A DNA stretch of 64,000 bases from Isurus oxyrinchus (Eukaryota). The position numbers and the translations under genes are program-made. The number at the start of each line of letters is the position of its first letter. Within the stretch, counting starts at the first letter, position 1. Location: positions 6,882,001 to 6,946,000 of the forward strand of contig JANJGN010000034.1 of assembly GCA_026770705.1 (NCBI GenBank), written 5' to 3'. Below, piece by piece: positions 2,960 through 61,413 of this stretch. The notes beneath the pieces were generated by a model that worked only from the letters and a program-made list of their open reading frames with translations, did not search any database and was not told where the DNA came from.

Positions 2960-3004
2960 CCTTCAACAGGCGATGTGCGCATTCGGAGCTGAGGAAACAA
3001 ATAA
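2960..3004 (+). CDS. Candidate 45-nt phase-1 microexon (xFNRRCAHSELRKQI)
   Basis: Strong acceptor tttgttttaatttttcag, donor A|gtaaaa; open in phase 1; not of the repeat consensus. Confidence 0.4.
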
Positions 3005-3367
3005 GTAAAAAGGCGCCAAACTACGGGAGGGCCGGCTTGAAACCGACAGCCATTGAGAAGAAGGTATCCCAAAAAGCAGGAGATGGGATTATGTTGATTT
3101 TTAGGCATTGCGGGGAAAGTCGGAGGGGCGGTGGGAGTGGGTGTGAGAGTGCTGTGGGGCAGGGGGAGAGAGAGACAGGGAGAAGGTCCGGAACCGGGGC
3201 AGAAAGAGGTCCCAGGCGAAGTTTGCATGCAAGGACAAAAGAGTTCAGAATGATGCTGCAAAAGAATGGAGAAGGACGAGGATCAGGAATAGTTCCAGCT
3301 AAATAAAGTTGATAGAAAAGAGCAGAGAAATGGGCTCTAAGTACCAGACAGGGATTCGAGCGGCAGA

Positions 3368-3376
3368 CCGGAAGTG
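3368..3376 (+). promoter_or_regulatory. ETS/GABP-type motif CCGGAAGTG in a CpG-enriched patch
   Basis: Exact motif about 100 bp upstream of a Kozak-like agcATGG (ATG at 3472). Confidence 0.35.
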
Positions 3377-3692
3377 ATGTGGTTTTGAAAGGAGCAGCAA
3401 GGTCCGCGTAGGCTGCCGAAGTTTGGTCAGTCCATCGTGTGGTCTTTTGGTGCACTGGTAATCTGCTCAGCATGGCGGAAGATGTGAGAGTCTGCTTGGA
3501 ATTTGAAATGCGAATTTCCTCTGAGATGCAGGGGAAAAGGCATCTCAGAAGGCGAGATTCAAACTCTCGATGAGCTGCTGAAGCCGTTCGATTGGGAAAG
3601 ATGTGAAAATAATTCCAGGGGAAGTTATTCAAACCTGGAAATCGGAGACCTTCTTGACAAAGACGGTATTGCAGTGAGACTGCTTGGCTCAG

Positions 3693-3710
3693 AATGTGAC
3701 AAAAATCAAG
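3693..3710 (+). CDS. Candidate 18-nt phase-1 microexon (xCDKNQ), or 3' end of a longer exon (frame open from 3488)
   Basis: tgcttggctcag|AATGTGACAAAAATCAAG|gtagct; the donor falls in phase 1 of ORF 3503-3832. Confidence 0.4.
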
Positions 3711-4789
3711 GTAGCTTTTTGAGAAACCCATGGAAACTGATTAGATTGCGCCTGTCATTTACTCTGTGGTGCGGTATGCATGACTACAATTGGCTTGTTA
3801 ATTCACATGTTCCCCATAATTACTCTGAATAAATTAGTATAACATATACATTGCAAATGCAGTTATATTTCGACATTTTTTGAACAGGAGACCAGCAATT
3901 TGATGAGAAGCAATAGTATGAACAGGCAAGAAGTGACAGAATAATTAAAATATTGAAATCTCCAAACGGTCATTAATTGAAGAAGACAGATTTCCAAGTC
4001 AGGTGTAAGGATGGAGAATGCTAGCGAAACAGCAGGAGGCAAAGTCACGGAGTGAGCTGAACATCAGTTTGAGCAACTGAAATAATTCTGAGCTCCTGAT
4101 AGTGGCTTCTGTATCTGTTGTATTCTGGGTGCTGTTGTGGTCAGTTTCCCTCTCCTAGTGGAATTCCTGCATGTCTTTAGTTTCTTCTTGTTGGGGAAGG
4201 AGCTGGCGAGGTAACCAGAGAACTTAAGTGCACAGTGGCGCTGTGGAAGTCTGTATTACGTGACACTGCTAAATATATTTTCATTGCAGTTGATTAAGCA
4301 ATTGTAATGAACTAGCCAATGCTGTTGACAAACAATAGTATGGCATATCAAACATCTGAACCGACGTTATGCATGCTGAACTATCGCCCAAGGCATATTT
4401 CTACACCAGGTTTTCGGGTGGTTATGGAGAATATTGAAATCATTTGTGTGGTAAGGCTCTGTACATACAGGAGAATTAAATAGGCTGCAGAGGCAAAATT
4501 GGCAGAATCACATTCTGCCCCGTTCATAGAATTCATGCTCTGCTAAATTACATTGGATGCAAGCACAAAGAATATAAGACATGCTACGTCGGAAACAATA
4601 CTGCGAGATTTGAGTTCCTGCTCTTCTCCAGTTTCACTGATAAATCGCTCAGGCGCAGTCTCCTGAAAGGCTTACAGCGTTAAACAGCTGTGTGAAGTCT
4701 TTTGAAATATTACTCAGTTCTCCTGAAGTGGAAAAGCCGGATTTATTTTTATAATTCACTCTTGCTCTCTCTCTCTCTCTCTGCTCCAG

Positions 4790-4825
4790 AACTATCTGCA
4801 TGTGTAGATTCACTGAAGGAAGTGG
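4790..4825 (+). pseudogene. 36-nt Cys-type microexon with defective donor (ELSACVDSLKEV)
   Basis: (CT)n-ctgctccag acceptor; matches repeat consensus; followed by ttaaaa instead of gt. Confidence 0.7.
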
Positions 4826-6201
4826 TTAAAAAGTCATATCTACTTTTTACTTCTTCGTGCAGTCATCATACTCAATAAGTCAATGATGCTCTTGACCTTA
4901 ATTATGCATCAGGAAAGTCCACCCTGCATTCATATATGTAGATGAGAAAAGGGATATTCCAACTTGCTGTTTATGGTTTATGGCAAAGCAGGTTCTATGA
5001 ACGTCGCTCCTCCAAAACTCTGTTTAAAATAAACCAAAGAAAAGAAAGTTCCAGAATATCATCTTTGCTGTGCTTTGAGTTGCATAGCCTTTGGATATGA
5101 TGTCAAAATTTATAGTATTAGTTTCAAAACCCTTCAGTCGCAAAATCCATTCCTCATGTCTTTAACGTCCTCCAAACGGTAACCAGCGTTGAAATGGGTA
5201 CTACTATAAATCTGTCCTCCCTTCTATCCTAAATTAAAAATTAGAACCATTAATGGCAGCACTTTCAGCTGCATGGTTGTATGTTTAGGAGTTAATTACT
5301 TACATTTCCACATGTCCAAAAAAACACTATTTTATATTGTTCCTTGAAATTCAACTATTTCATCAATATTCTGGACAGCTTTACTGATGCAAACATGGAA
5401 CAGATTTTAAATTCACCAAATATATTTAATCAGTTCTTGGGAAAAAATCATATTTTCATCTAAGTTTGAATGCCGCCTAAAAGGTGAATTGTTGAGGAAA
5501 TAATTTGCAACTACGTTCTTCTGGGCTGCATTGTATGGTTCATGTTGAACAATGATCTCCAAACATTTTGACTTACGAATAAAGCTGCTTCATAGCATGG
5601 GTTGTGGAGATAGGATTGTTACGATAAAAATTACTGAGGCATTTTAAAGGTCAGTGGCAAGTTATTTGAAAATGTATAACAGTATGGTGTTGGATTATGG
5701 TAGAAATAATAGGACCCTCCGTATTGAATTGAAAACAATGCTGGGAAATGGCAGAAAAGCAAAATAATTCAGGTTTTCAGATAGATGCATCAATAGAAGT
5801 GGAAATATATGTGAATGAGGCCTTTAGAATCAAATTTCAAAAAGTGTACATTTCAGGAGCAAAATATTTGTGAAGTTCTTAGCAAATATATTGCCACAAA
5901 GATGATAGGGCAGAATTTTACGTTCGTCGGTCAGGTGGGTCCAACCGAATCGGCAGCGGGCGGCTGGCCAATTGCAGCTGATGAAATGGGCCATGCGCCA
6001 TTTTCCGTTGGCAGTCCAATTAAGGCCCGCCCTGCAGGTAAGCGACTCCCGTGGAGGATGGGAAAATAGTTGTGGGGGCGGGTGGCTTCAGACATGTTAC
6101 TCCCATGGGCAAACGGCAGCCTGCATAAAGTGTGGCCAGAGAGCCTACTTGCGGCATAGCACCGTGGCCATTCAAAGAGAGAGGTCCGAGTGGACAGCAG
6201 C

Positions 6202-9120
6202 ATGATCATGAGGAGGAAGTGGACGGTGTGGGGGGCAGGCTACAGGCGATTTTGCGATGCAGTCCTTATTGTCCTTCTGCAAGAGGTGGGCTTCCGTTGG
6301 CACCTTCTGTATCCAGAGGATTTGGAGGAGGAGGGCCTCCCATGCCACCAACCAGGCGTGGGAGGAGGAGGTTGACGCTGTAAGTGCGGTTGATGATGTG
6401 CGGTGCACAGGCACTCAGTACAGGAAACAATTCATTGATTTGCTGCGCTCTGGAAGGATGACTATCATGACTGCCTTGGCCATTTGACCCAGAAGGCAGC
6501 CTGAGACTATGGCTCACCCCACCTCCCACCCTCATTTGCTGCTGTTACTGCATAGGGCAGCAGTCGCAAGCTAGGTGGGCAAATGAGTACTGGCCATCCT
6601 TACACCAGCCTAAGTGGTTGTAGAGAAGAGTTCTCCCGACAGCATGTGTTTGTCTTTGTGGCTTTTGAGTATTCTGCGGACAACCTGCACTGAAGGCCGC
6701 ACAGCAAATGCACAGAACTCCACCGCAAGTCATATTTATGGTATTGAGTTGTTGCAAGGTGTGCTTCAAGTAGTTTAGGGCAAGTACCATCTATTGACAT
6801 CTGCGTTGCACCTAGTTTCTCCTCCTTGACATCGGTGCTAAGAGACATATGCTATTCAAAGTGCCCAATGCCGAATCTGTCCAAGGTGGCCAATGGGGAA
6901 GTGTGTTGGGACCAGCCGTGTAATCTTCTGAGGACTGATCACCAGTACTGTGGACAGGAGCTGCTGGAGACCTTAGAGGGACCACTGTGGTTGGGGTGTG
7001 GCAAGCGCCTGCACACTAAATGAGCGAGCAGCCCCAATTAATCCTCTTCACTTTTTTGCAGGCAAAAACACACCACAATGCCTGGAAATGGCAAAGGACT
7101 GGAGGTGGGCGCACACTCATGCAGCGACTCAGGCGTTTTGAAGTGCAGGCCATGGAGCTGGGCAGGGTTCAGGAGCCAGGGCAGTCCGAGGCAGCAAGGC
7201 TGGGGTCCAGCAGGCAGGTATTTGAGGTTCACAGTCCCATTCACTCTGTCTGCACACAATTCAACCCACTCGTGGTTGGTGTAATCGTTAATGCTGAAAC
7301 AATGCTCGTAAAAGTTCTGAAACATTCTGACGTGTGGATCAAACAGACAGGATCCTCATCCCCTTGAGGAATCGTGTCTCCACCACGTTTCAAAGTCACA
7401 CTATTCCATTCAGGATCACTATCACCACGGTCTAATTCCATTGGATCGCTGCTGCACGTTAAAAAACTTATTTTATATGAGTGCCTTTGCGACCTCCAGC
7501 ACCCTTTCCCCCAGTGTGCCCAACATTACTCTGTCCAAACAATCGTCAGCATCTCAGCTGTGAGATTCATGTCACTCAGCTGAGATGAATTCCACCACAA
7601 AACTCATCCCTATGCCAAGGGGAAATATTGCCTTCTGCCCACCCGGTCTATGCCCCCCCCCCCCCCCCCCCCTTATGGAAAGAAGGTCAGTAATGTGACC
7701 TCTCAGTCTCCTGTGATCAACGGCAAATCTCGCTACTGTTTGTGATGCTTCCTCAGACCCACAACTGTGCAGTCGACAAAGCATCTAGGTCAGGTACCTC
7801 TGCACTCTCCCCACTCCTATTGTTCATAACACGCAATGCAGCATCTCTGAAGGTATCTGACCAGTTGGCCTGCATATCCGTTTAATGTTTTGGTCTTTTC
7901 TTGACTCCTTTTCATCTCACCAACTTTCTTCTCCTTAAGGTCTTGAAGGGTGAGCGACTTATGAGCCTGGGAAGGAAAATGATGAAAGGTTGAAGTGAAT
8001 GTACGCTAACTTATGCACTGTCAGTGTTGTTAATTTCAGCATCACCAGCAGAGCGACCCGCACATCAACCCTGCTGTCTCCGCTACCAGCCTGTGGGCCA
8101 AAAAGTGCAAATTGCGACACAGCAAATTTCTCAAAACTCTTGACATCGTCAGGTTGGTCCGTCTTGTATTTCAGGCACACAACATCATCACTCACTTTCA
8201 AGGAGAGACGCCCAGCACAGTGTTGATACTTAACGACCATATGAACCATCATGGTCCCCGTCAGACACAGTTTCTCAACCGCTTTGACGGAATCCTCCCA
8301 GTTCTGGATATAAGTCAGCCATTCAACAGCGCAGACACACACACCTCGATGGGGCCTTTACAGTAGGTAGCGTCTTGGTTCACAGTTGAGATCGCTGGAG
8401 GAGACGGTCAGGGCAGAGAATGCCAATGGCAAAAGCAGCTATAGGGCTACAAGGAACGAGGCACATGCTGAGACCAGCACTGATGACGTGCCTCTGGTGT
8501 TGTGCCCATTGCAGCAGCAGCAGGAAAGGCGACAGGAAGTGCATTTGCATCTGGCAAGGTTGCTTGAGGGAATGTTTCAGTTGCTGTCTGCGACGGAGGA
8601 GTCTAGACAGATTGCACATGAAGCATCCACCTCAGGGCAGAGCATCAGTGTTCCTTCAAAGAGAGATTGCCGACACCAATAGAGAGTGGCTTCCACCAAA
8701 TTGATCAAAATATGATTGGTTTACGCTCTGACCTGCAAGCACTCACAGCGCTTCTGGCCACAGGTGGTGTTTTGCACTGTGGGAGATCTTGTGGACCTCA
8801 AGAACCAGCAATCAGTGTCCATGCATATGCGGTGAACACGGAGGTAAATTTGGACCTCACGTCGGTGCAGCAGCTGCCTGCCATCGCTGCAAGCTCCTCT
8901 CACATTGCTCCGGATAAGGGCAGCAGCTGCTCCTCCCCTCTGCAAGTAAACATTTCTTCCATTGAGGCTAAGACAATTGGGGAGGTGCCAGTTCTGGAAC
9001 TGGACACTCCCTCCAAGGCGGGGTCATCACAGGCAAATATGGAATCAGAGTCAGCAGGCTGTCTCTCAAGCCACTCCTAGCGATGGGGCGGCACCGAGAT
9101 GTAGCAGCCGATAACATAAG
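6202..9120 (+). pseudogene. Harbinger Myb/SANT-like DNA-binding protein gene (exons about 6202-6457, 7062-7217, 8040-9120), frameshifted
   Basis: RFCDAVLIVLLQEV..LYP / TNQAWEE..AVSAV..RCTGTQYRKQFIDLLRSGR trihelix motif; exon 2 KTHHNAWKWQRTGGG flanked by ttttttgcag and gtattt. Confidence 0.8.
8100..8318 (-). pseudogene. SRP9: Intronless SRP9-like sequence (signal recognition particle 9 kDa)
   Basis: LTYIQNWEDSVKAVEKLCLTGTMMVHMVVKYQHCAGRLSLKVSDDVVCLKYKTDQPDDVKSFEKF aligns without gaps to SRP9 as recalled (W-E-E..AEKLYL.DPMK.R..LKYRH.DG.L..KVTDD.VCL.YKTDQ..DVKK.EKF); start codon position reads CTG; C-terminus diverged. Confidence 0.9.
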
Positions 9121-9399
9121 CATAAGGCACCTAATCCATTGCACGGGTATGTCACTTGTGATTTTGTGATGGCCTTAGAATAGTGACCCATATTTTTGTG
9201 ATCTCTGAAAAGTGGTGTGTGTTCTTTTTTTGGAGAAAATAAATTCCACCCTTGTAAACATGGCTGAGGGTCTTTTGTTTGTGGTGCATTTTTCTTTTTT
9301 CAAATATTTATCATGAGTTTTTGAGTGCACATTGATGTTTCTGTACTAAACCCTTATTTGCAGCTGAACAGGTGGAAGATGTGGCAAGTAAGTGCCATG

Positions 9400-10600
9400 T
9401 CTGCAGGTGCCAGGTAATGTTGTTCCTGCTGATTCATTTGCATGGAGCTAGCTGAAGGCACTTTCAAATAAATTGTCGTGGGTTTCGCTGCCTCCTTGGT
9501 GTAAATGAGAGTCATCATTCCACCCCTTATCATTGCCCTGTGCTTCCTCATCCTTTGAGACACTGTTGGATTCATCATGTGCAGCCTCACCCAGGGCTTC
9601 AAGGTCTTCATTGTCAATGCCATCCCCCCTTTGAACCACAAGATTGTTCAGGGCGCAGCAGACTACCACTATCAGACAGACACGATCTGAGGGGTACTGG
9701 ACTGTGGACCCTGAGCGGCCCAGGCTACAGAAGCCAATCTTGAGAAAACTGAAAGCTCTCTCCACCACAGGCTTGAGGTACCCTGGCTCCTATTGTACCA
9801 AAGCTCAGCTCCTGTTCTTGCATACTGTAGCAGCGTCATGAGTCAACGTCTGAGGGGATAGCCCTTGTCACCGAGCAGCCAATCATCCAGCAGAGCTGGA
9901 GCACTGAAGAGACGCAGCATCTAGGAGTGTCTGAGGATGTTGACATCACGGGAGCTGCATGGATACCTTGCACAGACATGTAAAATCTGCATCCTCTGAT
10001 CACACGCTATCTGCACGTTCATTGAGTGGAAACCCTTTCTGTTGATGAAGGCACTGGATTTACCTTGGCGCCTTGATGGCCACATGTATGCAGTCTACAG
10101 CACCCTGGACGCGTGGGAAGGCAGCAATGGGGCGAAGGCTCTGGTTCGATTTGCCTGACTTGCCTGGTTCCAGCGGAAGTGGATGAAGGTGGATACATGA
10201 ACAGCTGATTGGGAGACACTGCCAAGATCACCCACTGAGCCCTGGAAGGACGCAGCGGCATTGAATTGGAGGGCAAATGTGAGCTTCAGAGTCACTGGCA
10301 TGAGCTGTCCAGCCACACAGTTAGGGGCAATCTCAGGGCCAATCATATGACAGACATAGTTGACTGTCTCCCTTGACAGTTGGAGCCTGCTTCGGCCCTG
10401 TGCCTCAGTTATAATGAGGAAGCAGCTTCACCACCTGTATACCTTGGCAGCTGGATAATGGCATCATCTTTGGCCCCTTGCACCTTGGACAGCCCCTTGG
10501 ACCTGCGCTCCATGGGCTTGTGCCTGGACTCCCAAAAGTGCCTCCCTTAGAGGCTGATAGTCCAGTCTTGGCCTCCTCATGATTCCATCCCTCCATTCAT
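9400..10600 (-). pseudogene. Harbinger (HARBI1-like, DDE_Tnp_4) transposase with stops and frameshifts
   Basis: Motifs LKLTFAL..AAASFQGSVGDL.SVSQSAVH, GAVDCIHVAIKAP, KGFHSMNVQIACD, LLGDKGYPL, VERAFSFLK, CCALNNL. Confidence 0.92.
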
Positions 10601-11785
10601 CCACAGGGGAGCTGCCTCCACTGGAGAGTTCGGAACCCATAACCCCAGGCTAAATGGAGACCTGTGGAATGCTGCGAGGCCAAAAAGGAATGCTGTCTTC
10701 AGAATGCTTTTACTTTACACAAAAAAACTCTTGGACATCGATGAAAACTGCAAACATTCACAGAGTTATGATTTAAACAGTTTCATCAATTATAACTTCG
10801 TGAAAAACAGGAACAACCCCTCTGAGTTCACATATCCCGACATTGCAAAAGTTTTCTTAAATAATCTCCTACCCACCTTCCCCTTGGGCCCGTGCGCCTA
10901 ACTGAAGTTTGCACGGGCCCCTCAAAATCGCACACAATTGGCAAGTTAAAGGGCTTAACGCGTTCTTCAATTAAAGGAGGGCGAGCTGATTGCTCCCACC
11001 CACAGAAATATCGAGATGGGGAGTGCGGATGTCAGCACTGATGTGCGGGAAACGCCATCCGGATGTCAGCCGGAACATTCTGGCCTATATAAGCGTCTAC
11101 GTATGCTTACCTAGTGGTTATGTTGGTCTAGTGCTTACACAGAGAAGTGTAATAATGACTCGGCGCTATGAACTCAAATCACACCATGAAAGCTGTAAAC
11201 ATAAATTTCAATGAATGAAGAGATGCTGGATTGAAACAATCTAAAAATAAAGAAAACCAGAAGTAGTGAGTTTGCAACTTCCAGAAATTTGTGAAACTTC
11301 AGTGACTGCTGTAATACCTAGTGGGGAAGAAATGTGCCTCATGCGGACTGTCCTGAGGGAAGTTCAAGGATTTCGGCAATTACTTCTAGTTTCCCTTGTG
11401 AATGGCCGAGCAACTGATTTAGCTGCGCTTCATTATCAGCTTCTCAAGCTGATTAATTGTGTCCAATAAATGATGGTACTCGCAGAAAGCCCATCACTCA
11501 TAATAATGCTGGTAACAATAATAATTGATAAAAAATAATGATCATTCGATAACTGAAGGCTAATGGCCTCCATCTTAGAAAAGACATTTAAGTTACTAAC
11601 GATGGTTTACTAAAGATGTATATGGAAGATATCAGGACGTCATAACTGCTTGGACACATATAACAAGATGGAACTATTTACTCTAAAATGCAAAAGACGA
11701 AAATAAGACCACACTTGCTCTTAATAGTTTGCCATACTTCTGTACATTGAGCCCACACAGAAGTTTGTGTTTCTAAATTCCATTG

Positions 11786-12306: not shown

Positions 12307-12333
12307 AAAAACAGTTGAAAGCAAAAGAAGAAG
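12307..12333 (+). CDS. 27-nt microexon EKQLKAKEE
   Basis: ccgttacag|...|gtaatt; phase 1-1; repeat consensus. Confidence 0.85.
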
Positions 12334-12847: not shown

Positions 12848-12883
12848 AACTTGAAGCATGTCAAAAAATGTTAAAAGATTTAA
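12848..12883 (+). CDS. 36-nt microexon ELEACQKMLKDL
   Basis: ttatattttccag|...|gtgagg; phase 1-1; repeat consensus. Confidence 0.88.
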
Positions 12884-14376: not shown

Positions 14377-14448
14377 TCTATATTGATTGCCACAACTTAG
14401 CAGCAAGGGCTGTTTGCAGGCTGTCTTCCAACCCAGTTAGTACTAGAG

Positions 14449-18138: not shown

Positions 18139-18174
18139 ATCATGCTGCATGCAAAGTCTTACTGAAAGATCAAG
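18139..18174 (+). CDS. 36-nt microexon DHAACKVLLKDQ
   Basis: Long poly-T acceptor ...cattccag; donor AAG|gtaaaa; Cys at position 5. Confidence 0.85.
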
Positions 18175-26231: not shown

Positions 26232-26258
26232 AAAAAGAACTGAAAGCGAAGGTGGACG
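26232..26258 (+). CDS. 27-nt microexon EKELKAKVD
   Basis: ctcaaatgcag|...|gtacgt; phase 1-1; repeat consensus. Confidence 0.8.
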
Positions 26259-27025: not shown

Positions 27026-27061
27026 GATTGAATGAATGCAAAAAATCTTTAGGAGATTTAG
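27026..27061 (+). CDS. 36-nt microexon GLNECKKSLGDL
   Basis: ttttcttcatgacag|...AG|gtgaga; repeat consensus. Confidence 0.88.
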
Positions 27062-32738: not shown

Positions 32739-32765
32739 AACAAAAGCTAAAAGCAAAAGAGAATG
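32739..32765 (+). CDS. 27-nt microexon EQKLKAKEN
   Basis: tttattcttttgcag|...|gtaatt. Confidence 0.88.
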
Positions 32766-33361: not shown

Positions 33362-33397
33362 AACTTGCCACTTGCCAGGAAGATCTGATGGACTTGG
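33362..33397 (+). CDS. 36-nt microexon ELATCQEDLMDL
   Basis: ttcattacatgacag|...|gtgaga. Confidence 0.88.
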
Positions 33398-33779: not shown

Positions 33780-34560
33780 TCATAAGACTTAGGAGCAGAA
33801 GTAGGCCATTCGAACAATTGAACCTGCTCTGCCATTCAATGAGACAATGGCTAACCTGATAATCCTTAATTCTAATATCCTTCCTTTCCCCATTAAGTCT
33901 TGATTTACTTACTGATTAAAAACCTGTCTATCTCAGCCTTGCCTATACTGAACGACACAGCCTCTATAGCCCTATGCGTTAATAAAGTCCACAGATACAC
34001 TGCCTGCTGTGAGAAGGAATTCATCCTTATCTCTGACTTAAATGGGGGAACCCCTAACTCTGAAATTGTGCTTTCTGGTCAAGACCCTCCCACAGCGGGA
34101 AGCACCTCTCAGCATCTAACCCCTCAAGACGTCTACGAATCTTACATCTTTCAATGGGGCCGCCTCTAATTCTTCTGAACTCCAATGAGTACAGGTCCAC
34201 CCTGCTCAAATTCATTACTTGAGAAAATCCTTCCATGCCCGGGAACAAAATGTTGAATCTTCTCTGGAATGCCCCCAATGCCACTATATCATTCCTTGGA
34301 TAAGGCGGCCAAAATTGTTCACAGCATTCTGGGTATGTTCTAACTACTGCCTTGTCAAGTTTAACAAGGCTTCCCTATTTTTATAATATATTGCCTTGGC
34401 ATTAAAAGCCAACATTCCATTTACCATCACTAATACCTACTAAATTTGTATGCTAGATTTTTGTTATTCATTCACAAGGACACCTAAATCCCTTTGTGCT
34501 GCAGCTTTCTACAGTCTTTCTCGATTTAAGTAATATGCAGTCGTCTATTCTTCTTGAGAA
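33780..34560 (-). mobile_element. CR1-type LINE 3' fragment, reverse
   Basis: cataagacttaggagcagaagtaggcc tail; FQRRF..LYSLEFRRIRG on the minus strand. Confidence 0.88.
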
Positions 34561-35271: not shown

Positions 35272-35298
35272 AGAAAAAGTTGACATCAAAAGATGACG
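35272..35298 (+). CDS. 27-nt microexon EKKLTSKDD
   Basis: ggtctctttcag|...|gtagtt. Confidence 0.82.
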
Positions 35299-35924: not shown

Positions 35925-35960
35925 AACTCAGTAATCGCAAAGAAGAGCTAGGAGGCATAG
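35925..35960 (+). pseudogene. 36-nt microexon with dead donor and Cys->Arg (ELSNRKEELGGI)
   Basis: ttattttcttccag acceptor; followed by gaggaa instead of gtgaga; TGC->CGC. Confidence 0.75.
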
Positions 35961-37032: not shown

Positions 37033-37059
37033 GAAAAAAATTGAAATTAAATGAAGACC
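37033..37059 (+). CDS. 27-nt microexon GKKLKLNED
   Basis: ggcctttttcag|...|gtactt (weak donor). Confidence 0.75.
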
Positions 37060-37641: not shown

Positions 37642-37677
37642 AGCTCACCAAATGCAAAGAAGAACTAAAGGATTTTG
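37642..37677 (+). CDS. 36-nt microexon xLTKCKEELKDF
   Basis: ttttactgcacgccag|...|gtgtga. Confidence 0.85.
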
Positions 37678-38714: not shown

Positions 38715-38741
38715 CCGAAAAGTTGAAATTAAAAGAAGATG
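38715..38741 (+). CDS. 27-nt microexon AEKLKLKED
   Basis: tactctttttacag|...|gtaatc. Confidence 0.88.
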
Positions 38742-39351: not shown

Positions 39352-39387
39352 AACTTAACAAATGCAAAGAAGCCTTAAAGAAGTTAG
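39352..39387 (+). CDS. 36-nt microexon ELNKCKEALKKL
   Basis: attcctgttcgccag|...AG|gtgaga. Confidence 0.88.
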
Positions 39388-39689: not shown

Positions 39690-40430
39690 ACACGTTAAGC
39701 GCCCACGCAATTCACTCCTTTAAGATAGAATCTAACCATCGATCATTGACATTCACTTCCATTGCCATCGCTAAATGCCCCACTCTCAACATCCTGCTAG
39801 GTATTGACCGGGAAAGTAACTGGATTAGCCATACAGACAATCTGGCTACAGGGGTAAGCCAGAGAATAGAAATTCTGCGGCGAATAACTCAACTCCTGAC
39901 TCCGTATAGCCTCCTCACCATCTATAAGACAGAAGTCAGGAGAGTGATTGATTATTCTCCACTTGCCGGGATGAGTACAGCTCCAACAAAACACAAGAAG
40001 TTTGAGGCCAACCACGGCAAAGCCTCCCGATTGACTGGCACACCTTCCAGAAACATGGACTACATTCACGACTGACGAACAGTGGCAGCAACGTGTATCA
40101 TTTTCAAGATACAAGGCAGAAAGTCAGAAAGGCTCATTAGGCAGTACCTTCTAAACCTACGACTGCTACCCTCTAGAAGTCCGAGGGCAGCAGTTATATG
40201 GGTAGATCACCACTCAGAAGATCCCCTGCAAGCCACTAAACATCATGAATGGGACATTTTACATTTCACTGCCACTGGGACAATATCCTGGAACTCCCTC
40301 CCTAACAGCACTGTGGGTGGCAGTGGTTCAAGCATGCAGCACACCACCAGCTTCTCAAGGGCAACTGGGATGGGCAATAAATGCTGACCTAGCCATGAAC
40401 TCCCACATCCCGTAAATGATTTTTAAAAAA
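39690..40430 (+). mobile_element. CR1/L2-group LINE 3' fragment
   Basis: ILLGIDRESNWISH..LRRITQLLTP.SLLTIYKTEVRRVIDYSPL; tail gggcaataaatgctgacctagc. Confidence 0.85.
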
Positions 40431-41014: not shown

Positions 41015-41038
41015 AAGATACTGCGAAATTTAAAGATG
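41015..41038 (+). CDS. 24-nt microexon EDTAKFKD (short 27-nt type)
   Basis: ttgttcatttacag|...GATG|gtaatt; sits at the expected place in the alternation. Confidence 0.75.
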
Positions 41039-42489: not shown

Positions 42490-42525
42490 AAATCGCAGAC
42501 TGCAAAGGCTTGTTAAAAAAATCAG
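42490..42525 (+). pseudogene. 36-nt microexon with dead donor (EIADCKGLLKKS)
   Basis: tcatattgcag acceptor; Cys5 kept; followed by ctaaga instead of gtaaga. Confidence 0.75.
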
Positions 42526-44629: not shown

Positions 44630-44656
44630 AAGAGGCTCTGGGTAAAAAAGACAAAG
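44630..44656 (+). CDS. 27-nt microexon EEALGKKDK
   Basis: attctcacag|...AAG|gtaaac. Confidence 0.8.
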
Positions 44657-51370: not shown

Positions 51371-51406
51371 AATTCGCTGAATGCAGTAAAGCTTCGAAGG
51401 ATGCAG
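51371..51406 (+). CDS. 36-nt microexon EFAECSKASKDA
   Basis: ttcttctgtgttccag|...CAG|gtccga; Cys5. Confidence 0.8.
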
Positions 51407-52731
51407 GTCCGAAAATTCGTCATACTATTTTTTGGACGTTCTGCCCTAAAAACTCCCATTTCTTCAATTATCATGTTTTTCCTTTTCTAGTGGAAATGAT
51501 TGTAAGGTACCAGAATTGAACGGTGGCAGCTTTCAAGTGTCGAGGAGAATTCTTAATCCCGTGCTTTTTCACATTCCTGTTTTGTGGTGAAATTGGAGTG
51601 AAAATACAAGGTGTTTATCGATGCAAATAAATAATTTCACAAGGGCCCAATTTAAAGATTTATGCGCCTCATACCAGAACTGCCTGAATGCCTGGTTTGT
51701 CAGTAAAGGCTGAATTAACTTAGGCTCTTTCCTCGAGCGCAGAAATGGCCAAGCAAGGGACATTAAAATGACGAGGGATGTTTACAGGGTGGGAGTAGAG
51801 GTGCTTCAGTTAAGAAGCACCAATTACTGATATCAGAAATGCGACCTCCACTAATGAATAAAGGAGGGAATTCAGGTGGAACATTCTTTACACGGGGAGC
51901 GGTTGCAATTTGATTATCTTTCCCACGGGTTTCCATTGAGAAATAAGCCTGCGTGCATTTAAGTGCATTTGGTCGAGCACAGACAGAAGAGTTGTAGAGT
52001 CAATGCAAACCTATGTTGCGGGTAACATCTAATTAAGTGTCTATTTGTTGCAGTTCTGCCTTGCCGGTCCCATGAAGTGAAGGAAAGCGGGAATTATGTA
52101 GCTTATACATTGGACAGGCAGGTCGACACCACCTGTGTTAGTGTTGGTTTCTCAAGGAGGATTTTCATGAGGTGCCAACGAATTTAATGCTAAACCCCAG
52201 TATAGCCGTGTGGAAATATATAGAACAAACGAATCTGTGCATCATTTCTGTTTCCATAGTTTTAGAAATCGCTGATTTTTTTATTGATTTATTGGGAGTT
52301 TACGCTTGTCCCTGCCATGAGATCATTTTGCATCCCGTTTGGAAATTCCCTTGGGAAATGGGTTGTGAGTCTCCTTCTTGAACATCGAGAGGTAGTTGGT
52401 TTGCTGGGCGGAAGAAACAGTTATAAATCAACCCATTTTGTGCATATTTATCGTATTTTCAAAGAGATATTTAAATACTTTATTAAAAGTGTTAGTTCAG
52501 CTTGAACTCACATCTCTGCATCACCGGTACAGGCAGCTGGATTATACCGTAGAAACAGTATTGGAGATGCAAGAACATCTGATTGCTTGTGAATGGATGA
52601 TCATTTAAGAAGGCCTCCATGAATATATCCAACCAGGGTTGGCCATTCCATTTGTGTTGTATAGGAGCATATAAGTGAAATACACATTCATTTACCTGTT
52701 TATTTTAAAGTGACATTTGTCTTTTGAGCAG

Positions 52732-52758
52732 ACGATGAGCTGGAAACAAATGAAGAAG
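52732..52758 (+). pseudogene. 27-nt microexon with dead donor (DDELETNEE)
   Basis: cttttgagcag acceptor; followed by ttgcaa; SINE relic follows as in the other units. Confidence 0.6.
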
Positions 52759-53099
52759 TTGCAATATCTATCTTGGAATGACCTGTTAACAGAAATTGTG
52801 TGCAAGTGTTATTGGTTGGTAGCGTGGAACAGGCTGAGCCGCGAGTTTACAGTACCCAAACCCACTCCAGGCAGTTTGCAAACTAAACTGCGTCAAAGAA
52901 AACCCAGAGCACCACTGCAGTATCATTGTTTAGTGCAGGTGACGCAGTTTCTGATGAGGTGCGAAATCTCGCCTATTCTATCAGATAACAATTAAGCATC
53001 AAACGCTCCTTTATGTAAAAAAATGATTTGCAGTTGTAGCGTCACCTCACTGATTGACATTCCTCAACTATGATTGTAAAATTCTGTCGAAAATACCTT

Positions 53100-54280
53100 T
53101 GAATAGATATCCCATAGCACCAGATTAAATATGGTCAGTGAATTTGAAGTCAGTAGAGAAAGCAGATTGTCAGATTACTTCAAGACAGATTGTGAGAGTA
53201 AGAGTTAATGTCAGTTATTAAGTGTGGCAGCAGTTGGAAATTTGTCTTTGTAGGGGCTCACTTTTCGGGCAACTATAGATCACAATTTGTATTAAGGGTT
53301 GTGACGTCGATATGAAAAAAGGAAGTATCTGGTTTTGCAGATACAGTCAACTTGCACGCTCCAAGCGAAGTGGAATAGGAAAAGCTGAAGAGGACAGCAG
53401 CAATTTAGAGGATAACATTAACAACCTCGTCGATTGTGCAAATAATTGGCAAATGCATTTCAAAAACTGATAAATGATAAAGCATCATGCTTTAGTCGGA
53501 AGGATGGTGAGAACTTATCATTTTTGGAACGTGCAAGTCTTCCAGGGTACGGGAATGAAGGGATTTAGGAGTCTAAGTGCGCCAATCGTTTAAATTCTGC
53601 AGGAGCCTGGCAAACCCATAACACAACAAAGCAAAACACTATGCTTTGTGGAAGATGGATACTTGTGAGAAGTCAGTCATGCTGAACTTACAACGGGCCT
53701 TTGAGTAGAGCCCATTTAGAGGACTGCATTCAATTCTGGTGACAATATTCTATATAATAAAGACATAGAAACAGTGGAGGGTGAAGACAACGTCCAGCGA
53801 ATAATACCAAAAGTATTTTACTGTACATATCAGGAAACGATTAACCAGCTGCATCTCTTTAATCTTGGGTGAAAAAAAGCTATGAATACCAAGAGATGAC
53901 GTAATGGAATCATTTAAATTCGTAAATGTATTGAGTTAGTCGATGCAGAGAGAACGTTTTCTCTCATGGGGAAGAGAATAACTGGAGGTCATAAATAAAT
54001 GGTAGTTATCTAGAGATCGAATAGTAAATACAGCAGAATACTCTTTCCCAAAATCCTCGGGAACATGGGGATTCACTTTAAAGGAAGTGGATAAAGAAAA
54101 ACGTATGCAATTATATAGCATTTATGGGAAGGTTAGACAAGCAAATGATGGGGAAGTGATTTCGAGAGTTAATTGATACATATGCGCATGGATGAGGTTA
54201 CATGTGCAAACTCTTAAGGAAATTGTACTGAAGCATAAACTAGTTGGGCGGCCGCAAGGCCTATTTCTATGCTGTGCAGC
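53100..54280 (+). mobile_element. Highly degenerate CR1-type LINE inserted in a SINE relic
   Basis: WQMHF, RAHLEDCIQFW motifs; tail ggcctatttctatgctgtg. Confidence 0.75.
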
Positions 54281-54617
54281 TGATGAAATCATATTCGTGT
54301 ATGTAATCAGGTTGTTTTCATTCTCACTGATATTTTATTGGGTTTGAGCTCCGAAAGAACAGCCAACTTTAATTGCCCACCCCGAACCGCCGTTGAAAAC
54401 GAGTTGTTAGGTTGCCTTCTAGATTCGTTTTGATCCATGTATTGTAGGTGCACACACGTTGCTTTTCCTGAGGCACGCTAACCACATTTTCGGCTGATGG
54501 CTTCATGCCAATGCAACAGTGACTTCAGGATAAAGTGACTGTAACTCATTTTGGGACATATTGGGTCCCTAAAGACGACAATGTCAAATATGTTTTTTCC
54601 TTTCTTTTTTACTCCAG

Positions 54618-54653
54618 AACTATCTACGTGCAAAAAAACCTTAAGCGATTTGG
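54618..54653 (+). CDS. 36-nt microexon ELSTCKKTLSDL
   Basis: ttttttactccag|...|gtaaga. Confidence 0.9.
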
Positions 54654-55717
54654 GTAAGAAGTTGTTCCGAATTCAAAGCTATGCACAGTTACAGGCCGCA
54701 ACAATTCCTTTAGAAATGAAATTTGCTCTGCTTCCGATTGGCACAGGGCATTTGCCTGTGATTACAAATTTGATGTGTGTATCAAACTATTAACAATGTT
54801 TCAAAAGGCACATCACTTCTGCAGTGCTATTTGCTGAAACTGTGCATCTTGTGACATTAATTTGTACACGAACTACATGTGATCACGTTGGATGTGGTAG
54901 CATATGAAGGTCTGACAATTATCGGCTAATTCATCACGCTTGCTCCATTTCAAAATGGGTCAGGCACAGCACTGGATGCTCGCATCGCATACAAGGTGAA
55001 AAAATTTCATCGGAGAGAGAGAAATAAACAAAAAAAAGGCTAATCGAAGATGAGAGCTTATTCCCGGGGTAGTTATTCTTCCATTCCCTCAGGCGAACAA
55101 AAATATTATAGAATTTCAGTGCGAATTAGTACTCACTGTACAGAAACTTAGGCTATGAATGAAACAATCTATGCCGTACTTAAGAATCTCCGGACATCCT
55201 CCTTGAATTTGTGCCATAATTCAACATCCGCTGCATCATGAAACTACATATCCCAAAGACTGATTATTATCTAAGGAATTAGGAGCAGCAAAAATCCCTG
55301 CCTCTTATTCTTGCAAATGCTAAAATAATTCCCCTTGGTGCACTTAAGCCTGGAATATTGTATTCTACCTGCGTTCCCTATTCGTTTATTTAGTGTATTG
55401 CCTTCAAAAATGTCACTTCTCTGTCGGCACCGAGATAAATAAACCATGGTCTTGGTAAATCAAAATAGCAGGAACCTTTAATCCAGGATTCATACTACAG
55501 CTCTCCTGTGCAAATGCCCCAAACTTTCTGCGTAAGCCGTTAGGATGGAAGGTCACAGCTGTATCCAAGGTATCTTGCAAAGTTAGCGGTTGAGCAAATG
55601 ATAAGCTATGTCCGATTTCACATCTAAATCCCAATAGGCGAGAGCCAAATGATGTTCAATTCCACATTGCTGGAAATAAGTTGATGCTCATGAAGTTAAT
55701 AACTTGCTCGTTTTCAG

Positions 55718-55744
55718 AGGGAAAGTTGGATGCCAAAGGCAAAG
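55718..55744 (+). CDS. 27-nt microexon EGKLDAKGK
   Basis: ctcgttttcag|...AAG|gtcggt. Confidence 0.82.
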
Positions 55745-55994
55745 GTCGGTGCACTCGGTTGTTTATTCTAATTTTCCTTGCGAGTGCTGGTGGCAACGCT
55801 CGAAATCATTGAGAACCCGTGATCGTCCTTGACATATCCGTGAGTCTGCACTCACCAAATGTTGCTTCGTTGTTTTAAAAGATTAACAATTCATGCAGCA
55901 GAACAAAGGTAGTGACGGAAATCAGGAAACATTTCTTGAATAACAAGAGCAAAGCTTAACAAAGCTAAGCAATGATTTCACTTGTTCGACGCGC

Positions 55995-56088
55995 CTCTCT
56001 CTCTACCTCTCTCTCTCTCTTGCCTCATTTCTCTCTCCCTCCCTCTCTCATTCGCTCTCCCTCTCCCTCTCTATCCCTCGCTCCCTCT
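55995..56088. repeat. (CT)-rich microsatellite
   Basis: Imperfect (ctct)n run. Confidence 0.85.
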
Positions 56089-56129
56089 GGTGGTGATCCC
56101 TTACAACTTATGCCCGTTTACATCTATGT

Positions 56130-57010
56130 AGCAGATGTGGCATGTTTGGAAATTGCCACTGAGTGATCCCAGCTAATTTCAGCAGTATACATTGTATATG
56201 ATTCATTTTGTTGCCATAGTGCGTCATTGGTAGAGGGAGAGAGAGAATGATTTAACTTGTGGCTGGGCTGCCAATAACATTGACTCGCTCACCCTAAGAA
56301 GTGTCGAGCTTCATAAGTGTTGTTGATTTTCTGCTGATTCTGCCAAATGGAGGTTATTGCATGACACAAATTATTTGAGCATTCTACATAGTAGACAGGC
56401 TTGGGGGCGTCAGGTGTTGAGTTAGTAACCCCTTATCTGTTCTGGTTGCCCGACCATTTATATGTCCGTTGCAGTAAGTTTCCACTTACTGACATCCCAG
56501 AGAAAGATAATTCTGGGGGATTCAGCCAAAGCAATGCGAGTAAATATAAAGTGACTTGGTTACATTCTCTCCTGCTGGAATAGGACTTTGTCTCGCATGC
56601 AAATATCACTTGCCACCTTTCGGCGATAGCCTGAATATTGCTCAGGACTTGTAAGGTATGGCTTCAATATAGGGGAATAGCTAATTTTACTGGACATGTG
56701 CACTCATCAGCACACTTCCACATTTCAATGAAGGAGCTGAAGCTGGATTGGCTTAGGGTGCTTACCTGAGGAGATCCTGCAGTGATGGACGTGACTCAGG
56801 TGATTGCCCTCCAACAGAAGTTAACATCTTTGTGTTAACTTTGACTCGAACCAGTGGAAACCTCCCCCCCCACTCCCACGCTTCACATTGTCTTCAATTT
56901 AGTCTGGGCCCTATTGTGCAATCCTTGCTCAAATGCTGCATTGGTGTCAAGAGCAGTCATTCTCACTCCATCCCTTGTGTCCAGATTGCAGAGAACTCTC
57001 AGAGAGCACC
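56130..57010 (-). mobile_element. CR1/L2-group LINE fragment, reverse
   Basis: Reverse-complement similarity to 39690-40430 (e.g. aagtgtcgagcttc, cacttgccacctttcggc). Confidence 0.65.
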
Positions 57011-57690
57011 CCGGAAAATACACATCCTGTTCCTTTTTATACATATTTAACCTGTACATGAACTTTCAGTCTCATTTCCCTTAGGCCACCTCTAAGAAAA
57101 TTATTTCAGGCTCCACAATTGCGCCTTTGCATGTCTATTATGGAAAAATTCATCCATGTTTTTGTGAGCTTAGCACTTGACTGTACAAGTCTTTTGCTGG
57201 CCGCTGTCCAACAACCCACCCTCCTGAATTGCAGCTGCATTGTGTCTGAATATGCACAAACCCCCACTAACACGTTAAATTGATGTTTGTTGCTTCAGTG
57301 TATGCGTAGCCCGAATGTAAGGAATCGCATACATTCTTTTGAAACCCTCCATGTGCTCGCCCCTTCATACCTCCATATTCTCCTACAGTCTTAAAAGTTC
57401 CCTAATACCTGTGTTAATTCAATTTATGTATTTTAATGATTCCATAATTTTTGCTCCTTTGCTTTTCTTGCCTTCAGCTATATAGGCCCCCAGCTATATA
57501 GTTCCCCACCACTACCATGTCCCCCTCATCCTCCGGTCCTCCACCCTAACGCTCATCTGCCCACCCTCCCCCCACCCCCGCCCAATTACTTTATTTTTTC
57601 CTGACAAAGCCTTCATTGAACTAACCTCTTAGACTGAACTTTTGGCCGGCTGCTCTAATGTTGCCTTCTGGATTAAGGATTCTGCAGTAG

Positions 57691-57716
57691 ACGATCAACT
57701 GCAAGACAGAAAAATG
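57691..57716 (+). pseudogene. Decayed 27-nt-type microexon (DDQLQDRKM-like)
   Basis: Begins ACGAT like 52732; downstream ttgaaatatctttctt matches ttgcaatatctatctt; donor reads gaaatt. Confidence 0.45.
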
Positions 57717-60355
57717 GAAATTGAAATATCTTTCTTTGAGCTGACGTGGTTATGTGGTGTTAAATCCACATCACGGTTAAATACAACCAGCATGTTGTCT
57801 ACTGCTTGGGTTGGCCTCTGACAATATCGAGGAATAGTATGGAGTTGCTCCCTGTGTAACGTAGCTTACAGTGAGGCCCAAAAGCATTGACTACTCCCGA
57901 CAAAGGGTATGGATCAAGCATCGTGCAGTCGAGATAACTTGACACCAACGACCTCAATGAACATCGGGACCAATAGTGTATCCTTATGAAAAAAATAGCA
58001 CGTCCGTATTTGGAAAGTTAGAGTTTATGAAGAGTGATTATAAGGAACGATATTGCATGAATTACTGCTCAGCATAGACATAAGACACCTGGAGCGGAAC
58101 ATGATGGCTCCGCCGATCCTGGCTCAGGGCCGTAAATTGCCGCGAGCCATTCAGAAATTTATTAATATCGGCGGGGCCTTTAAATCATGCTAGAGTATAA
58201 TTCTGTCCGTGGCAGGATGACTCGGCGATTCGTGTGTCATCCAGAAGGTCGTAAAATGACAACTAGATGCCATTTCCCTGAAGCAAACCGCAGAGAGGCA
58301 TATTTTAACCAACGTATTCTCTACATTCAAAGCTAATGATGTATTTGGGTATCTGCTAAAGTCGGTTGCCAATTTCATTATTATTAAAAGAATGAGAATG
58401 TGAAAGGCCTCAGTTTCTCCAGCAAACCACAGCCGAATACCGTTACAATCAGCTTGGATGTGCAAAAATGCCTGACTTTATAGCAACATAGGGAGCGATA
58501 TTAATGAACAGATTGTGATTATATATTTACGACTTTCCACAGGCTATCTTGGATGTTTCTCATTCAGCTTTTAAATCAAGGAACATAGTTTCAAGTTCGA
58601 AGCTGAAGGGTGAAGCATGTGATATATCCTGAGATTACTAATGCACGGCTGAGGGACGGCTACACTGTCTTTCAGTTGAGATGCTTTGCACTGGATGTAA
58701 AAGTTTCCCAGGGAGCTCTTAGGTATTAAAGAAGGCAGCCGCCATCCCCCACACCACCTGTTCTACGTACATAAAATTCCTCGGTACACAGGTCAATCGC
58801 TGTTTAACTAGTTTCTCCCTGAGTGTTATTTAAAGCAGTATTGTAGCCCCTTGCCCAAACAACAACAGTTAGACATGTTTTTAAAGTTTTATTTATTTTC
58901 TTTATTCTGTTTCCCTTTTGCCTTGTTGCCTCCCTTCCTCCCCTCATTTGTTTCCCCTTTGTTCCTTCTTTCTTTCAATAATTTGTTATGTTCCTTCAAT
59001 TGGACATGGGATTCGAGTGTTATGGGGTCGAGACAGAAAATTGGAGCTAAAACCACCATCAGATCAATCATAATCTTACTTAATCATGGAGCAGGCTCGA
59101 AGGTTTAACTGGCGTGCTCCTGTTCCTATGTCCATATGGACTTCATTTCTCACTTTATCTTTATAATTCCTCCCTCACGTTGTTCTGTTCGATATTCAAT
59201 CTTATCTTCCTTTTTTTTCCTTTCGTTTCTGCAATCCCTCTTTCTCCATCTGGCTATCTCTCCCTTCAGCATCTTGCCTTGTTCGATCTTTAGTAGGGAA
59301 GGTGAATTGGAGGTCCAGAAACCAAGGACACAGGGTCACAATGAGTTCATTTCATTTTATTCTTTTACCTGAAAAAGGTGAAGGGAATTCTATTTAAGCG
59401 TCATCAATCCAAGCCTGTTTGGTTATCCTTAAATGTATTTGTTTCCACTTAACAGTTATAAAGACCTATTGAAGAGTATAATCAATGAAAGTGGTAGTGT
59501 TTCTGTTATGTCATATCCTATATTAAACTTGACTCCGTTCATGGTGCCTTTTCCTTGATGTTTGGAAATTATTATTTCGAGTCCCAGCACACATACTTGA
59601 GCAGTAGTATGGGACGGGCACCATGGAAGAAAAGTGCTACATAAGCTATGGAAAGCGATGCAAGACAAAATAGTAAGAATGTTACTTTAAAAAACGTTTA
59701 TAACTATCGGAGGAAATGTAACATGTGTGAAGTTATTTCTCTGTAAATAGAACAGTCAGTTCGGCCGTGAAAATGCTTCAGCAACCTGACAGAGCACCCT
59801 AAACAAAGCTCACTCCAGTGCTGGGGAATTCAGAACTAGGACCAGAAAAATAACCTGATAAGGTGTAAACTTCGGGGCAATTTATTCGGAAACCTGTGTG
59901 TTCAAATAACGCACAGAATGAGGACCGTTTTGTGAAATGGCCAGAGTGAGCCGAAATCATGCGTTAATTTAATCAGAAACTGGGTATTGTTGAAAAAAGA
60001 TGTTCTTTTGTCGAAGTTTCTCGTCTATATTTTGCAAGGCAAAAAGCTTCCAAAAATTGCTTTTTTTTCAGCAAGATTCAAGGTTATGTACAGCAAACCA
60101 AACTACAATTGTATAACATAAACTAGATAAGTGCGAGAGGAAGAAAGGGAAATCCAGAAAATATTGATGCATTTTTCAAGTGGAGGTAGCTGGTGTGAAG
60201 CGTGGTCACGCAAACGGGCCAAATTGACCAAATTATCTCTTTGAACGCTGTTAGTCCTGTGAAAGTAGATATGTACTGCGGACTCAGTATACTTTACCAA
60301 ATAATCCCTGTCAGTTGAAATATGCATGTTATTTTTTCCCATCAATTTACCACAG

Positions 60356-60391
60356 AGTTGAAGAAATGCAATGAGTCCTTGAAAGATTTGG
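60356..60391 (+). CDS. 36-nt microexon ELKKCNESLKDL
   Basis: atttaccacag|...|gtgaga. Confidence 0.88.
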
Positions 60392-60729
60392 GTGAGAGAA
60401 ATGTTTCCTACATACTTATTTTTTTCAAAAGCATGCCCATTATTTGGCAGCCTAAATAACTGTGTTCTATATAATCTGTAAATTGTGAAACAAGTATTTG
60501 TTCCATAGAGATTTTTTTTCTCTTTTAAAGCAAATTCATTGTTAAACATTGGATGCTGCGTCCCTCATTTAACTGGTAAATGTAGCAAGCCTTTAAAGGA
60601 GCCGTTTTCGAAAATAATTTGCTAAAACCTACCAGTTTAGGAAAACTGTTGCCACACTTTGCTAACATTCTTTGCAGAATGGCAAATGTAAAATCCTCCA
60701 TGGACGTTTCAATTTTGAATTGTAGAAAC

Positions 60730-61230
60730 TAACATGACAAAAGGGTGTATTTCGCCCCTTCGAGCCAGCATTGAGTAATAATGAGACATTTAGCCTAAAC
60801 CCACTTTCAGGCTCTTAGCCCACAACCTTGAAGGCTAGGACACTTGAAATGTATATCCAAGTTAATTAAAACATTGAAGGCCTATTCCCCCTCATCCAGG
60901 TAGATAGTACCAACGCCCTACCATTCTCGGGTTGAAAAGGAACATGGTCACCAATCCAAATTGAACTTCGTACTTCATGCCTTAAATCTAGGCAGATGGT
61001 TACGAACATCAGATCAACGGGCGCAAAGCCTTCAAATCAACTAAACCTCGACATCTCCTACTATTATACATTAATTTAGATCTCCCCTCTACATTCTCTG
61101 CTGCAAAACAAAAAAATAAGAAAGCTCCGATTTCCAATTGAAATTTTCTTCAAAGGTATGTTAATTCTGGTCGGATAATTGCCTCGTATACCTAATCCCA
61201 ATCCTCTCCAATGCTTTGTCTGAATGTTAA
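60730..61230 (-). mobile_element. Degenerate CR1 3' end, reverse
   Basis: ttcgccccttcgagcc and tagcccacaaccttgaagg reverse-tail motifs. Confidence 0.65.
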
Positions 61231-61392
61231 ACCTGCCGAAATAAGCACTTTTAAAAAAATGTGATTTTGGTTTGAAATACCCCGATAGTTTGCGGTGGCT
61301 CAGCTGATTCTACCGCATTGAATTGAAAATTTAGCGCAAAAAAAAAATTGATTAACTCGACGCTCCTTGAAAATGTGTTTCTTCCCTAACAG

Positions 61393-61413
61393 CGGATAAG
61401 CTCAAAGCAGCAG
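61393..61413 (+). CDS. 21-nt microexon ADKLKAA
   Basis: ttcttccctaacag|...CAG|gtaaag; KLKA consensus; one heptad. Confidence 0.75.

Follow-up and report, generated by a model that had tools for sequence, protein, structure and literature searches.

A putative megabase gene of symmetric microexons with a terminal B30.2 exon in Isurus oxyrinchus

Microexon array and terminal B30.2 exon

The stretch of Isurus oxyrinchus DNA analysed here, called the window, is 64,000 nucleotides (nt) long (contig JANJGN010000034.1, hereafter C34, positions 6,882,001-6,946,000; genome total 4.98 Gb) and is crossed by a predicted gene that we name X, with W, V, U and T denoting related genes on the same contig. 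The initial annotation had proposed a hidden gene of about 25-30 alternating 36- and 27-nt phase-1 microexons over 60 kb. We read 1.264 Mb surrounding the window and called exons with a splice-site and codon model, using the minus strand as a control because the model was trained on the X array itself. Coordinates outside the window extend the window scale, and a C34 position equals 6,882,000 plus the coordinate. In the X interval, 278 candidates were found on the plus strand versus 4 on the minus strand at scores above 18, and 314 versus 7 at scores above 16; over the whole 1.264 Mb, 258 and 2 candidates scored above 20. A hidden gene made of symmetric phase-1 microexons is thus borne out, and its extent had been greatly underestimated: the 278 candidates span 1.03 Mb, and the window is an internal slice, 6%, of a stretch of about one million bases.

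Most of the 314 candidates are 27 nt (139) or 36 nt (128) long, with 17 of 15 nt and 12 of 21 nt. The array ends with a 30-nt exon at +604,091, followed by a 21-nt exon and then by a B30.2 exon. This terminal exon is open over 172 codons and ends in a stop; it matches Pfam SPRY at 4.6e-12, and its closest PDB match is BTN3A1 (5.8e-20). B30.2 had been among the terminal domains guessed earlier, and an intact copy is what the flanking DNA holds after the array. Within the X array, tblastn detected no further B30.2 exon and no Ig or TRIM N-terminal exon, and a hydrophobic exon at +642,026, downstream, has no paralog. The recent internal expansion of X is a higher-order tandem repeat of exon-intron units, in which 15-nt exons form a 36-15-36-15-36 pattern in six copies.

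Within the window, 24 units had been listed as phase-1 microexons. All 24 are preceded by AG, and the claim holds for the 19 that are open and have a frame-keeping GT donor (nine of 36 nt, eight of 27 nt, one of 24 nt at 41015 and one of 21 nt at 61393); it fails for the other five, marked as decayed in Table 1. When units were scored with a leave-one-out profile, all twelve 36-nt units (10.9-56.7) exceeded every minus-strand position of the window (maxima 4.2-10.3), and eight of the ten 27-nt units tested did likewise; unit 44630 scored 7.3, with one minus-strand position equally high, and unit 57691 scored -9.7. Four of the five donor-less units are also dead in the sister copy W, so their decay predates the duplication described below, and 42490 has no counterpart in the W sequence compared. 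The segment at position 2960, with which the earlier gene began, is probably not an exon, because its donor is weak (3.9) and a 2-nt insertion breaks the frame of the W copy. The two main types do alternate, though not strictly: across the gene they do so at 172 of 244 junctions, versus a shuffled mean of 122.7 and maximum of 147. Since the intron flanks of units at 32.5-39.7 kb are also alike, the unit of duplication is an exon pair together with its introns.

Abundant repeat fragments at window positions 40,265-40,395 and 33,780-33,950, which we take to be SINE-like (short interspersed nuclear elements), attract nearly all contigs of the sequencing run. The run contigs map solely to repeats at 26-45 kb of the window and none lies on the B30.2 exon, which gives no verdict on expression.

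Table 1. Features of X and its surroundings on the window scale
Feature	Coordinates	Strand	Basis or remark
X microexon array (278 candidates, score >18)	-422,854..+604,120	+	exon model
Recent internal tandem expansion of X	about +110,000..+300,000	+	internal copies
X terminal B30.2 exon	+614,442..+614,962	+	Pfam SPRY
Copy of W 5' region, ending at 240-kb deletion	-448,310..-426,165		X/W comparison
Duplicated nectin-like gene start, IgV broken; membership in X unsupported	-460,572..-457,315		
Open 45-nt segment, probably no exon	2960..3004	+	weak donor; frame lost in W
Decayed 36-nt exon	4790..4825	+	no frame-keeping donor; W state identical
27-nt phase-1 microexon, intact	12307..12333	+	profile; also intact in W
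36-nt microexon, intact	12848..12883	+	profile; W comparison
36-nt microexon, intact	18139..18174	+	profile; W comparison
27-nt microexon, intact	26232..26258	+	profile; W comparison
36-nt microexon, intact	27026..27061	+	profile; W comparison
27-nt microexon, intact	32739..32765	+	profile; W comparison
36-nt microexon, intact	33362..33397	+	profile
27-nt microexon, intact	35272..35298	+	profile; W comparison
Decayed 36-nt exon	35925..35960	+	donor gone in X and W
27-nt microexon, intact	37033..37059	+	GC donor in W copy
36-nt microexon, intact	37642..37677	+	W copy 33 nt, in frame
27-nt microexon, intact	38715..38741	+	profile; exon model
36-nt microexon, intact	39352..39387	+	profile; exon model
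24-nt microexon, intact	41015..41038	+	frame-keeping GT
Decayed 36-nt exon	42490..42525	+	no frame-keeping donor
27-nt microexon, intact	44630..44656	+	second in-frame donor at 12 nt
36-nt microexon, intact	51371..51406	+	profile; W comparison
Decayed 27-nt exon	52732..52758	+	donor gone in X and W
36-nt microexon, intact in X	54618..54653	+	W copy without donor
27-nt microexon, intact in X	55718..55744	+	W copy dead
Decayed 27-nt exon	57691..57717	+	acceptor poor, no donor; W copy has stop
36-nt microexon, intact in X	60356..60391	+	W copy dead
21-nt microexon, intact	61393..61413	+	W comparison

Duplication history and selection on the exons

Counting X, five related B30.2 exons lie on C34, the others at 6,395,821 (W, 92%), 4,816,518 (V, 58%), 3,474,122 (U) and 2,708,644 (T). 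Microexon arrays are present in the sampled parts of all four relatives, a sample that leaves out roughly 0.9 Mb in the middle of W and the larger share of T, U and V; the 26 kb directly before the U B30.2 exon held no clear array. X is a tandem duplicate of the upstream gene W. The 5' region of X aligns with that of W (4,827,827-4,850,373) at 76-83% identity, and the alignment then jumps to 5,091,193, which reveals a 240-kb deletion in X. Before their arrays, W and V have three exons in common, of 111, 36 and 27 nt, all of which X has lost. We considered foreign DNA at the X junction and rejected it, as the sequence is the W 5' region. The same duplication took in the start of a downstream nectin-like gene: the IgV exon at +631,578 is intact, the one at -457,665 broken.

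Three further observations concern the cluster. The B30.2 exons of X and W share 94.8% nucleotide identity, with a proportion of synonymous differences (pS) of 0.089, half the divergence elsewhere in the duplicate, and gene conversion is possible. A 2.9-kb block at 76,447-79,394 of the extended window is 92% identical to C34:5,824,645-5,827,569 at non-matching places of X and W, and is probably a younger transposon. The arrays of U on the minus strand and V on the plus strand lie head to head, and between them, at C34:3,994,011-3,995,747, is a 432-bp inverted repeat (88%), either transposon ends or an inversion scar.

For the X/W exon comparison, five pairs with mis-sized or paralogous best matches were dropped, and for 22 of 67 exons the W sequence compared contained no match. 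The 30 pairs intact in both genes are 90.6% identical versus 83.2% in their flanks, with pS of 0.193 and a proportion of nonsynonymous differences (pN) of 0.073; dead pairs are 79.6% identical. Such a pairwise test is silent on which copy is constrained. When exons were picked in W, 27 of 27 kept AG/GT in X, 26 of them at unchanged length (p 0.001), given a neutral retention expectation of 0.70 per lineage (a two-lineage value of 0.48 was discarded). Within the internal expansion of X, 100 copies picked through flank homology showed no change in 400 splice-site bases versus 31.3 expected, no stops or indels, and one cysteine change versus 9.8 expected; core heptad positions were more constrained than the others (0.031 versus 0.054, p 0.027). 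Splice sites, reading frame and cysteines of the array are therefore under selection.

Predicted protein and its relatives

When the 278 exons were joined in silico, they gave 2,815 codons with one stop. The predicted array product of 2,816 residues would be about 418 nm long at 0.1485 nm per residue, and is rich in Lys (20.6%), Glu (16%) and Leu (15.3%). Its helical period of 3.46 residues and its Pro content of 0.1% agree with the modular coiled coil claimed earlier. No hydrophobic segment occurs in the array (maximum 19-residue Kyte-Doolittle (KD) value 0.35). A 36+27 pair encodes 21 residues, or three heptads; Leu occupies one core position (67%) and Leu, Cys or Lys the other, where 78 of 92 cysteines fall. 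Cysteines at such a core position would suit inter-chain disulfides in parallel coils.

The exon ends suggest free interchange. The last base is G in 259 of the 278 exons and the first two are mostly AA, AG or AT, so that nearly any exon can join any other in frame, with mostly Glu or Asp as junction codons. Skipping a single exon of 9 or 12 residues would keep the frame and shift the heptad register by two positions, and only the 21-residue pair preserves both. Isoforms of relatives in databases differ by internal blocks of 6, 9, 9 and 9 residues, as microexon skipping would yield; these are automatic gene models, and they indicate only indirectly that skipping tunes rod length, as the initial annotation had supposed.

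Among the single-domain best matches to a profile of the family B30.2 domain, the named ones all come from cartilaginous fish (chimaera, shark, skate and ray gene models); one lungfish match scored much lower and was left outside the tree. In an unrooted B30.2 tree of 49 rows, the 15 family rows, which had been chosen by that profile, form one group (100/100) apart from the 34 others, among which Ig-bearing, TRIM and other B30.2 rows are intermixed. The family includes XP_042192744.1 (Callorhinchus, "nuclear-pore anchor-like"), XP_055510696.1 (Leucoraja, "TRIM69-like"), XP_038668997.1 and XP_038672308.1 (Scyliorhinus, "TRIM39-like"), XP_069775385.1 (Narcine, "A33-like") and GCC29436.1 (Chiloscyllium). 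These stand-in names imply RING or nuclear-pore roles, which the domain scan did not support: SPRY was the sole Pfam match in six of six models, with no RING or B-box. Like X, the database models consist of a coil and SPRY alone, but they have 175-1,697 residues versus about 3,000 predicted for X. The chimaera model XP_042192744.1 (1,697 aa) ends in a B30.2 domain of the same clade and shares the 12-residue module, with 17 matches to the 36-nt-exon profile versus 3.1 in shuffles (maximum 9), so the microexon array predates the chimaera-elasmobranch split. With both the clade-specific B30.2 and the 12-residue module present, X is assigned to a coil-B30.2 family of cartilaginous fish. Of the word-based protein searches aimed at longer relatives, one found none at 1e-30 and another a single family member. 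No literature on this family was found, with subscription journals and supplements outside the search. A single-sequence fold of the skate model was of low confidence (pLDDT 45) and was not used. Outside the shark clade, models from bowfin (Amia, MBN3300211.1) and gar (MBN3314018.1) combine PRY-SPRY with a hydrophobic segment and with coil repeats like those of lectin necks, the B30.2 domain apparently sitting on an extracellular stalk.

The 5' end was searched for other domains. None of 76 open reading frames (ORFs) of at least 60 aa before X matched Pfam, and none of the 61 ORFs upstream of the W array, among 96 listed of at least 78 aa, gave an Ig match. The sole tblastn match to eight Ig regions, at +723,101, lies downstream of the X B30.2 stop, as do the intact IgV exons; the IgV at -457,665 is broken and nectin-like. 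None of the strong phase-1 exons located 5' in X, W and V is a transmembrane (TM) exon, though an N-terminal anchor on a first coding exon outside this set is possible, and six TRIM N-terminal regions found no RING or B-box by tblastn in the four stretches searched. There is no C-terminal lectin domain, as the terminal exon of X is SPRY plus stop. The stalk or tail of a receptor of the BG, butyrophilin or CD23 kind, as first envisaged, is therefore not supported: no intact Ig, TM or lectin exon was found before or inside the array. We also dropped a reading of the locus as IgV-TM-tail, in view of the B30.2 nature of the 3' exon, the downstream place of the intact IgV and the broken upstream IgV. 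Hydrophobic ORFs near -441.5k do not keep their frame between X and W, and five 80-bp conservation peaks in the retained X 5' region are at about chance level by estimate.

The chimaera and skate models XP_042192744.1 and XP_055510696.1 start with hydrophobic leaders (9-residue KD 2.8 and 3.3, a measure of hydrophobicity only), and because of these signal-like starts the family is somewhat more likely than not to be secreted. The 111-nt exon of W and V, whose hydrophobic start shows third-position-biased conservation between the two genes, looks like the second half of a leader. The product of X may be routed unlike those of its sisters, since X lost this conserved exon.

Interpretation of the gene and its surroundings

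Based on these observations, we suggest, with about even confidence, that X is one 1.04-Mb gene in which ~280 symmetric microexons would be spliced in a single transcript onto the terminal B30.2 exon, giving a soluble coiled-coil rod of about 2,800 residues and 420 nm. Ligand binding would fall to the B30.2 tip, at a great distance from the opposite end of the rod, and chains may self-associate in parallel through Leu-rich core positions and be joined by disulfides between the fixed core cysteines. Modules are added to the rod by tandem duplication and are lost from it when donors decay or exons are deleted, and probably also when exons are skipped. For the family, we lean slightly towards secretion, in which case the protein would work like a collectin, as a stalk with a recognition head in which a coiled coil replaces collagen. 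More tentatively, the family may be an ancient, secreted one specific to chimaeras, sharks and rays, with a B30.2 head, a disulfide-stitched rod of up to about half a micron, and hundreds of interchangeable 27/36-nt exons whose skipping sets the rod length of each transcript; exon counts of such genes would approach that of titin (363).

Several points weigh against this proposal. The plus-strand exon counts include the training exons. The first coding exon of X, W and V was not found by donor lists, paralog comparison or the N-termini of relatives, and four of six family models, possibly 5'-incomplete, have no leader. N-glycosylation sequons are at chance level (8 versus 7.6). Since 55 same-type junctions (38 of 27/27 and 17 of 36/36) break the heptad register, the rod cannot be one perfect coil; such breaks, being already present, are presumably tolerated, probably as hinges. 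Constraint on amino acids is milder than on splice sites: the ratio of nonsynonymous to synonymous changes within the X expansion is 0.71 (p 0.08), and pairwise dN/dS is weak (0.34 in intact pairs, 0.57 in dead pairs, 0.47 in the broken IgV, and 0.45 with p 0.057 between the X and W B30.2 exons). Exons picked in X keep AG/GT in W in just 31 of 37 cases (p 0.049), and all selection p-values are optimistic because the copies are related. In addition, the cytoplasmic tails of chicken BG proteins are described as holding a fixed-position cysteine (PMC5938342), so a fixed cysteine is no proof of secretion.

The same gene structure could instead encode a cytosolic rod, either with a tethering or scaffolding role, by analogy with the BG-derived zipper protein, or as a TRIM-like sensor without RING. 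We regard this as less likely than the first reading but as its main rival, and it would most likely apply to X itself, where the 240-kb deletion takes away the 111-nt exon, no leader exon was found and the first array exon, at -422,854, holds an in-frame ATG. B30.2 is described as following the butyrophilin transmembrane region and as ending TRIM proteins (PMC8813856), and the zipper protein is a soluble precedent (PMC4046983), but the leader-like starts of two independent relatives, the conservation pattern of the 111-nt exon start between V and W, and the cysteines kept in recent X copies argue for the secreted rod. An improbable variant is that X has no promoter of its own and is read through from W, skipping the W B30.2 exon as an alternative last exon in a unit of ~2.6 Mb, or is driven by the duplicated nectin-like promoter, in which case the signal exon there would be used and the broken IgV passed over. 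Its exons are all in phase 1 and share one orientation, the duplicated signal exon has kept an open frame and its donor, and the search for a first coding exon of X itself found none; against this, X keeps 22 kb of the W 5' region with a donor common to V, W and X, the W B30.2 is intact, and the duplicated signal exon is, by inspection, conserved no better than neutral DNA.

A membrane receptor, either tailed as in butyrophilins/BG or with a type II stalk whose anchor stays uncleaved, seems more doubtful still. BTN3A1 is the best PDB match, the first X array exons are 21 nt long as in BG, IgV exons lie nearby, and the bowfin and gar models combine a hydrophobic segment, a coiled neck and B30.2. 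However, no Ig or TM exon (for X, no intact one) was found before W, V or X, the array reaches a KD of only 0.35, and the family B30.2 domains form a clade of their own, apart from Ig-bearing ones. Moreover, among the best candidates, contig C21 carries the matches to MHC class I and the majority of those to butyrophilin IgC, with none at C34 2.7-7.5 Mb. That X is a decaying pseudogene, or its units functionless repeats, we consider very improbable: X is 5'-deleted and five of its 24 window units are dead, but the unchanged splice bases of its internal copies (0 of 400), the 27 of 27 W-picked exons retaining AG/GT and the open B30.2 exon stand against decay.

We thus return to a selected, unannotated megabase microexon gene of the cartilaginous-fish coil-B30.2 family, as predicted from DNA, which resembles several known systems in part. 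The CD23 stalk has a 21-residue module, and collectins are built of a stalk and a recognition head; X differs in having no lectin domain and in dividing its 21 residues over two exons. TRIM PRY-SPRY proteins share the order of coiled coil and B30.2, whereas X has no detected RING or B-box and a coil about 20 times longer, built from microexons. In chicken BG genes, IgV and TM are described as being followed by 13-36 exons of 21/24 nt (PMC4046983). With these genes and the zipper protein, X has in common a coil from many tiny phase-split exons and a tandem cluster that expands and contracts (as described in PMC4046983, PMC5938342 and PMC8813856), but BG genes have IgV and TM and no B30.2, while X has ~280 exons, mainly of 27/36 nt, and a terminal B30.2; only 12 of 314 X candidates have the BG length of 21 nt. 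Butyrophilins are reported as IgV-IgC-TM proteins with few heptads and B30.2 (PMC8813856, PMC12841164), and BTN3A1 and BTN2A1 likewise place a single B30.2 exon after short heptad exons; unlike them, X has no detected IgV-IgC-TM, belongs to a separate B30.2 clade and lies on another contig than most butyrophilin IgC exons of the genome. The BTN3A residues W350-H351-Y352, described as phosphoantigen residues (PMC7348870), align to G-S-W in X, with Ser in place of the pocket residue His351. Snake vespryns/ohanin, described with a signal peptide and a secreted B30.2 (PMC4566206), are a precedent for that combination and differ in having no long coil.

If spliced as predicted, X would be among the most exon-rich vertebrate genes, overlooked by annotation; the databases searched contain just shorter family models under stand-in names. 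It would present a protein whose length evolves through gain and silencing of single microexons, a natural setting in which to test exon recognition, with hundreds of exons of 15-36 nt spread over a megabase, and a further B30.2 lineage, neither TRIM nor butyrophilin, for the shark immune or structural repertoire.

Downstream of X, a nectin-1/2-like gene start with a signal exon and IgV lies at +628,720..+631,930, with no other strong Ig exon of this gene detected over the following 90 kb; in its duplicate upstream of X the signal exon is open and the IgV broken. Two more IgV exons are found at +671,330..+671,660 (minus strand, weakly CD33/light-chain-like) and +723,101..+723,343 (B7/butyrophilin-like). 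Together with nectin-like exons at C34 13.1-13.7 Mb, the IgV exons look like a cluster of the immunoglobulin superfamily.

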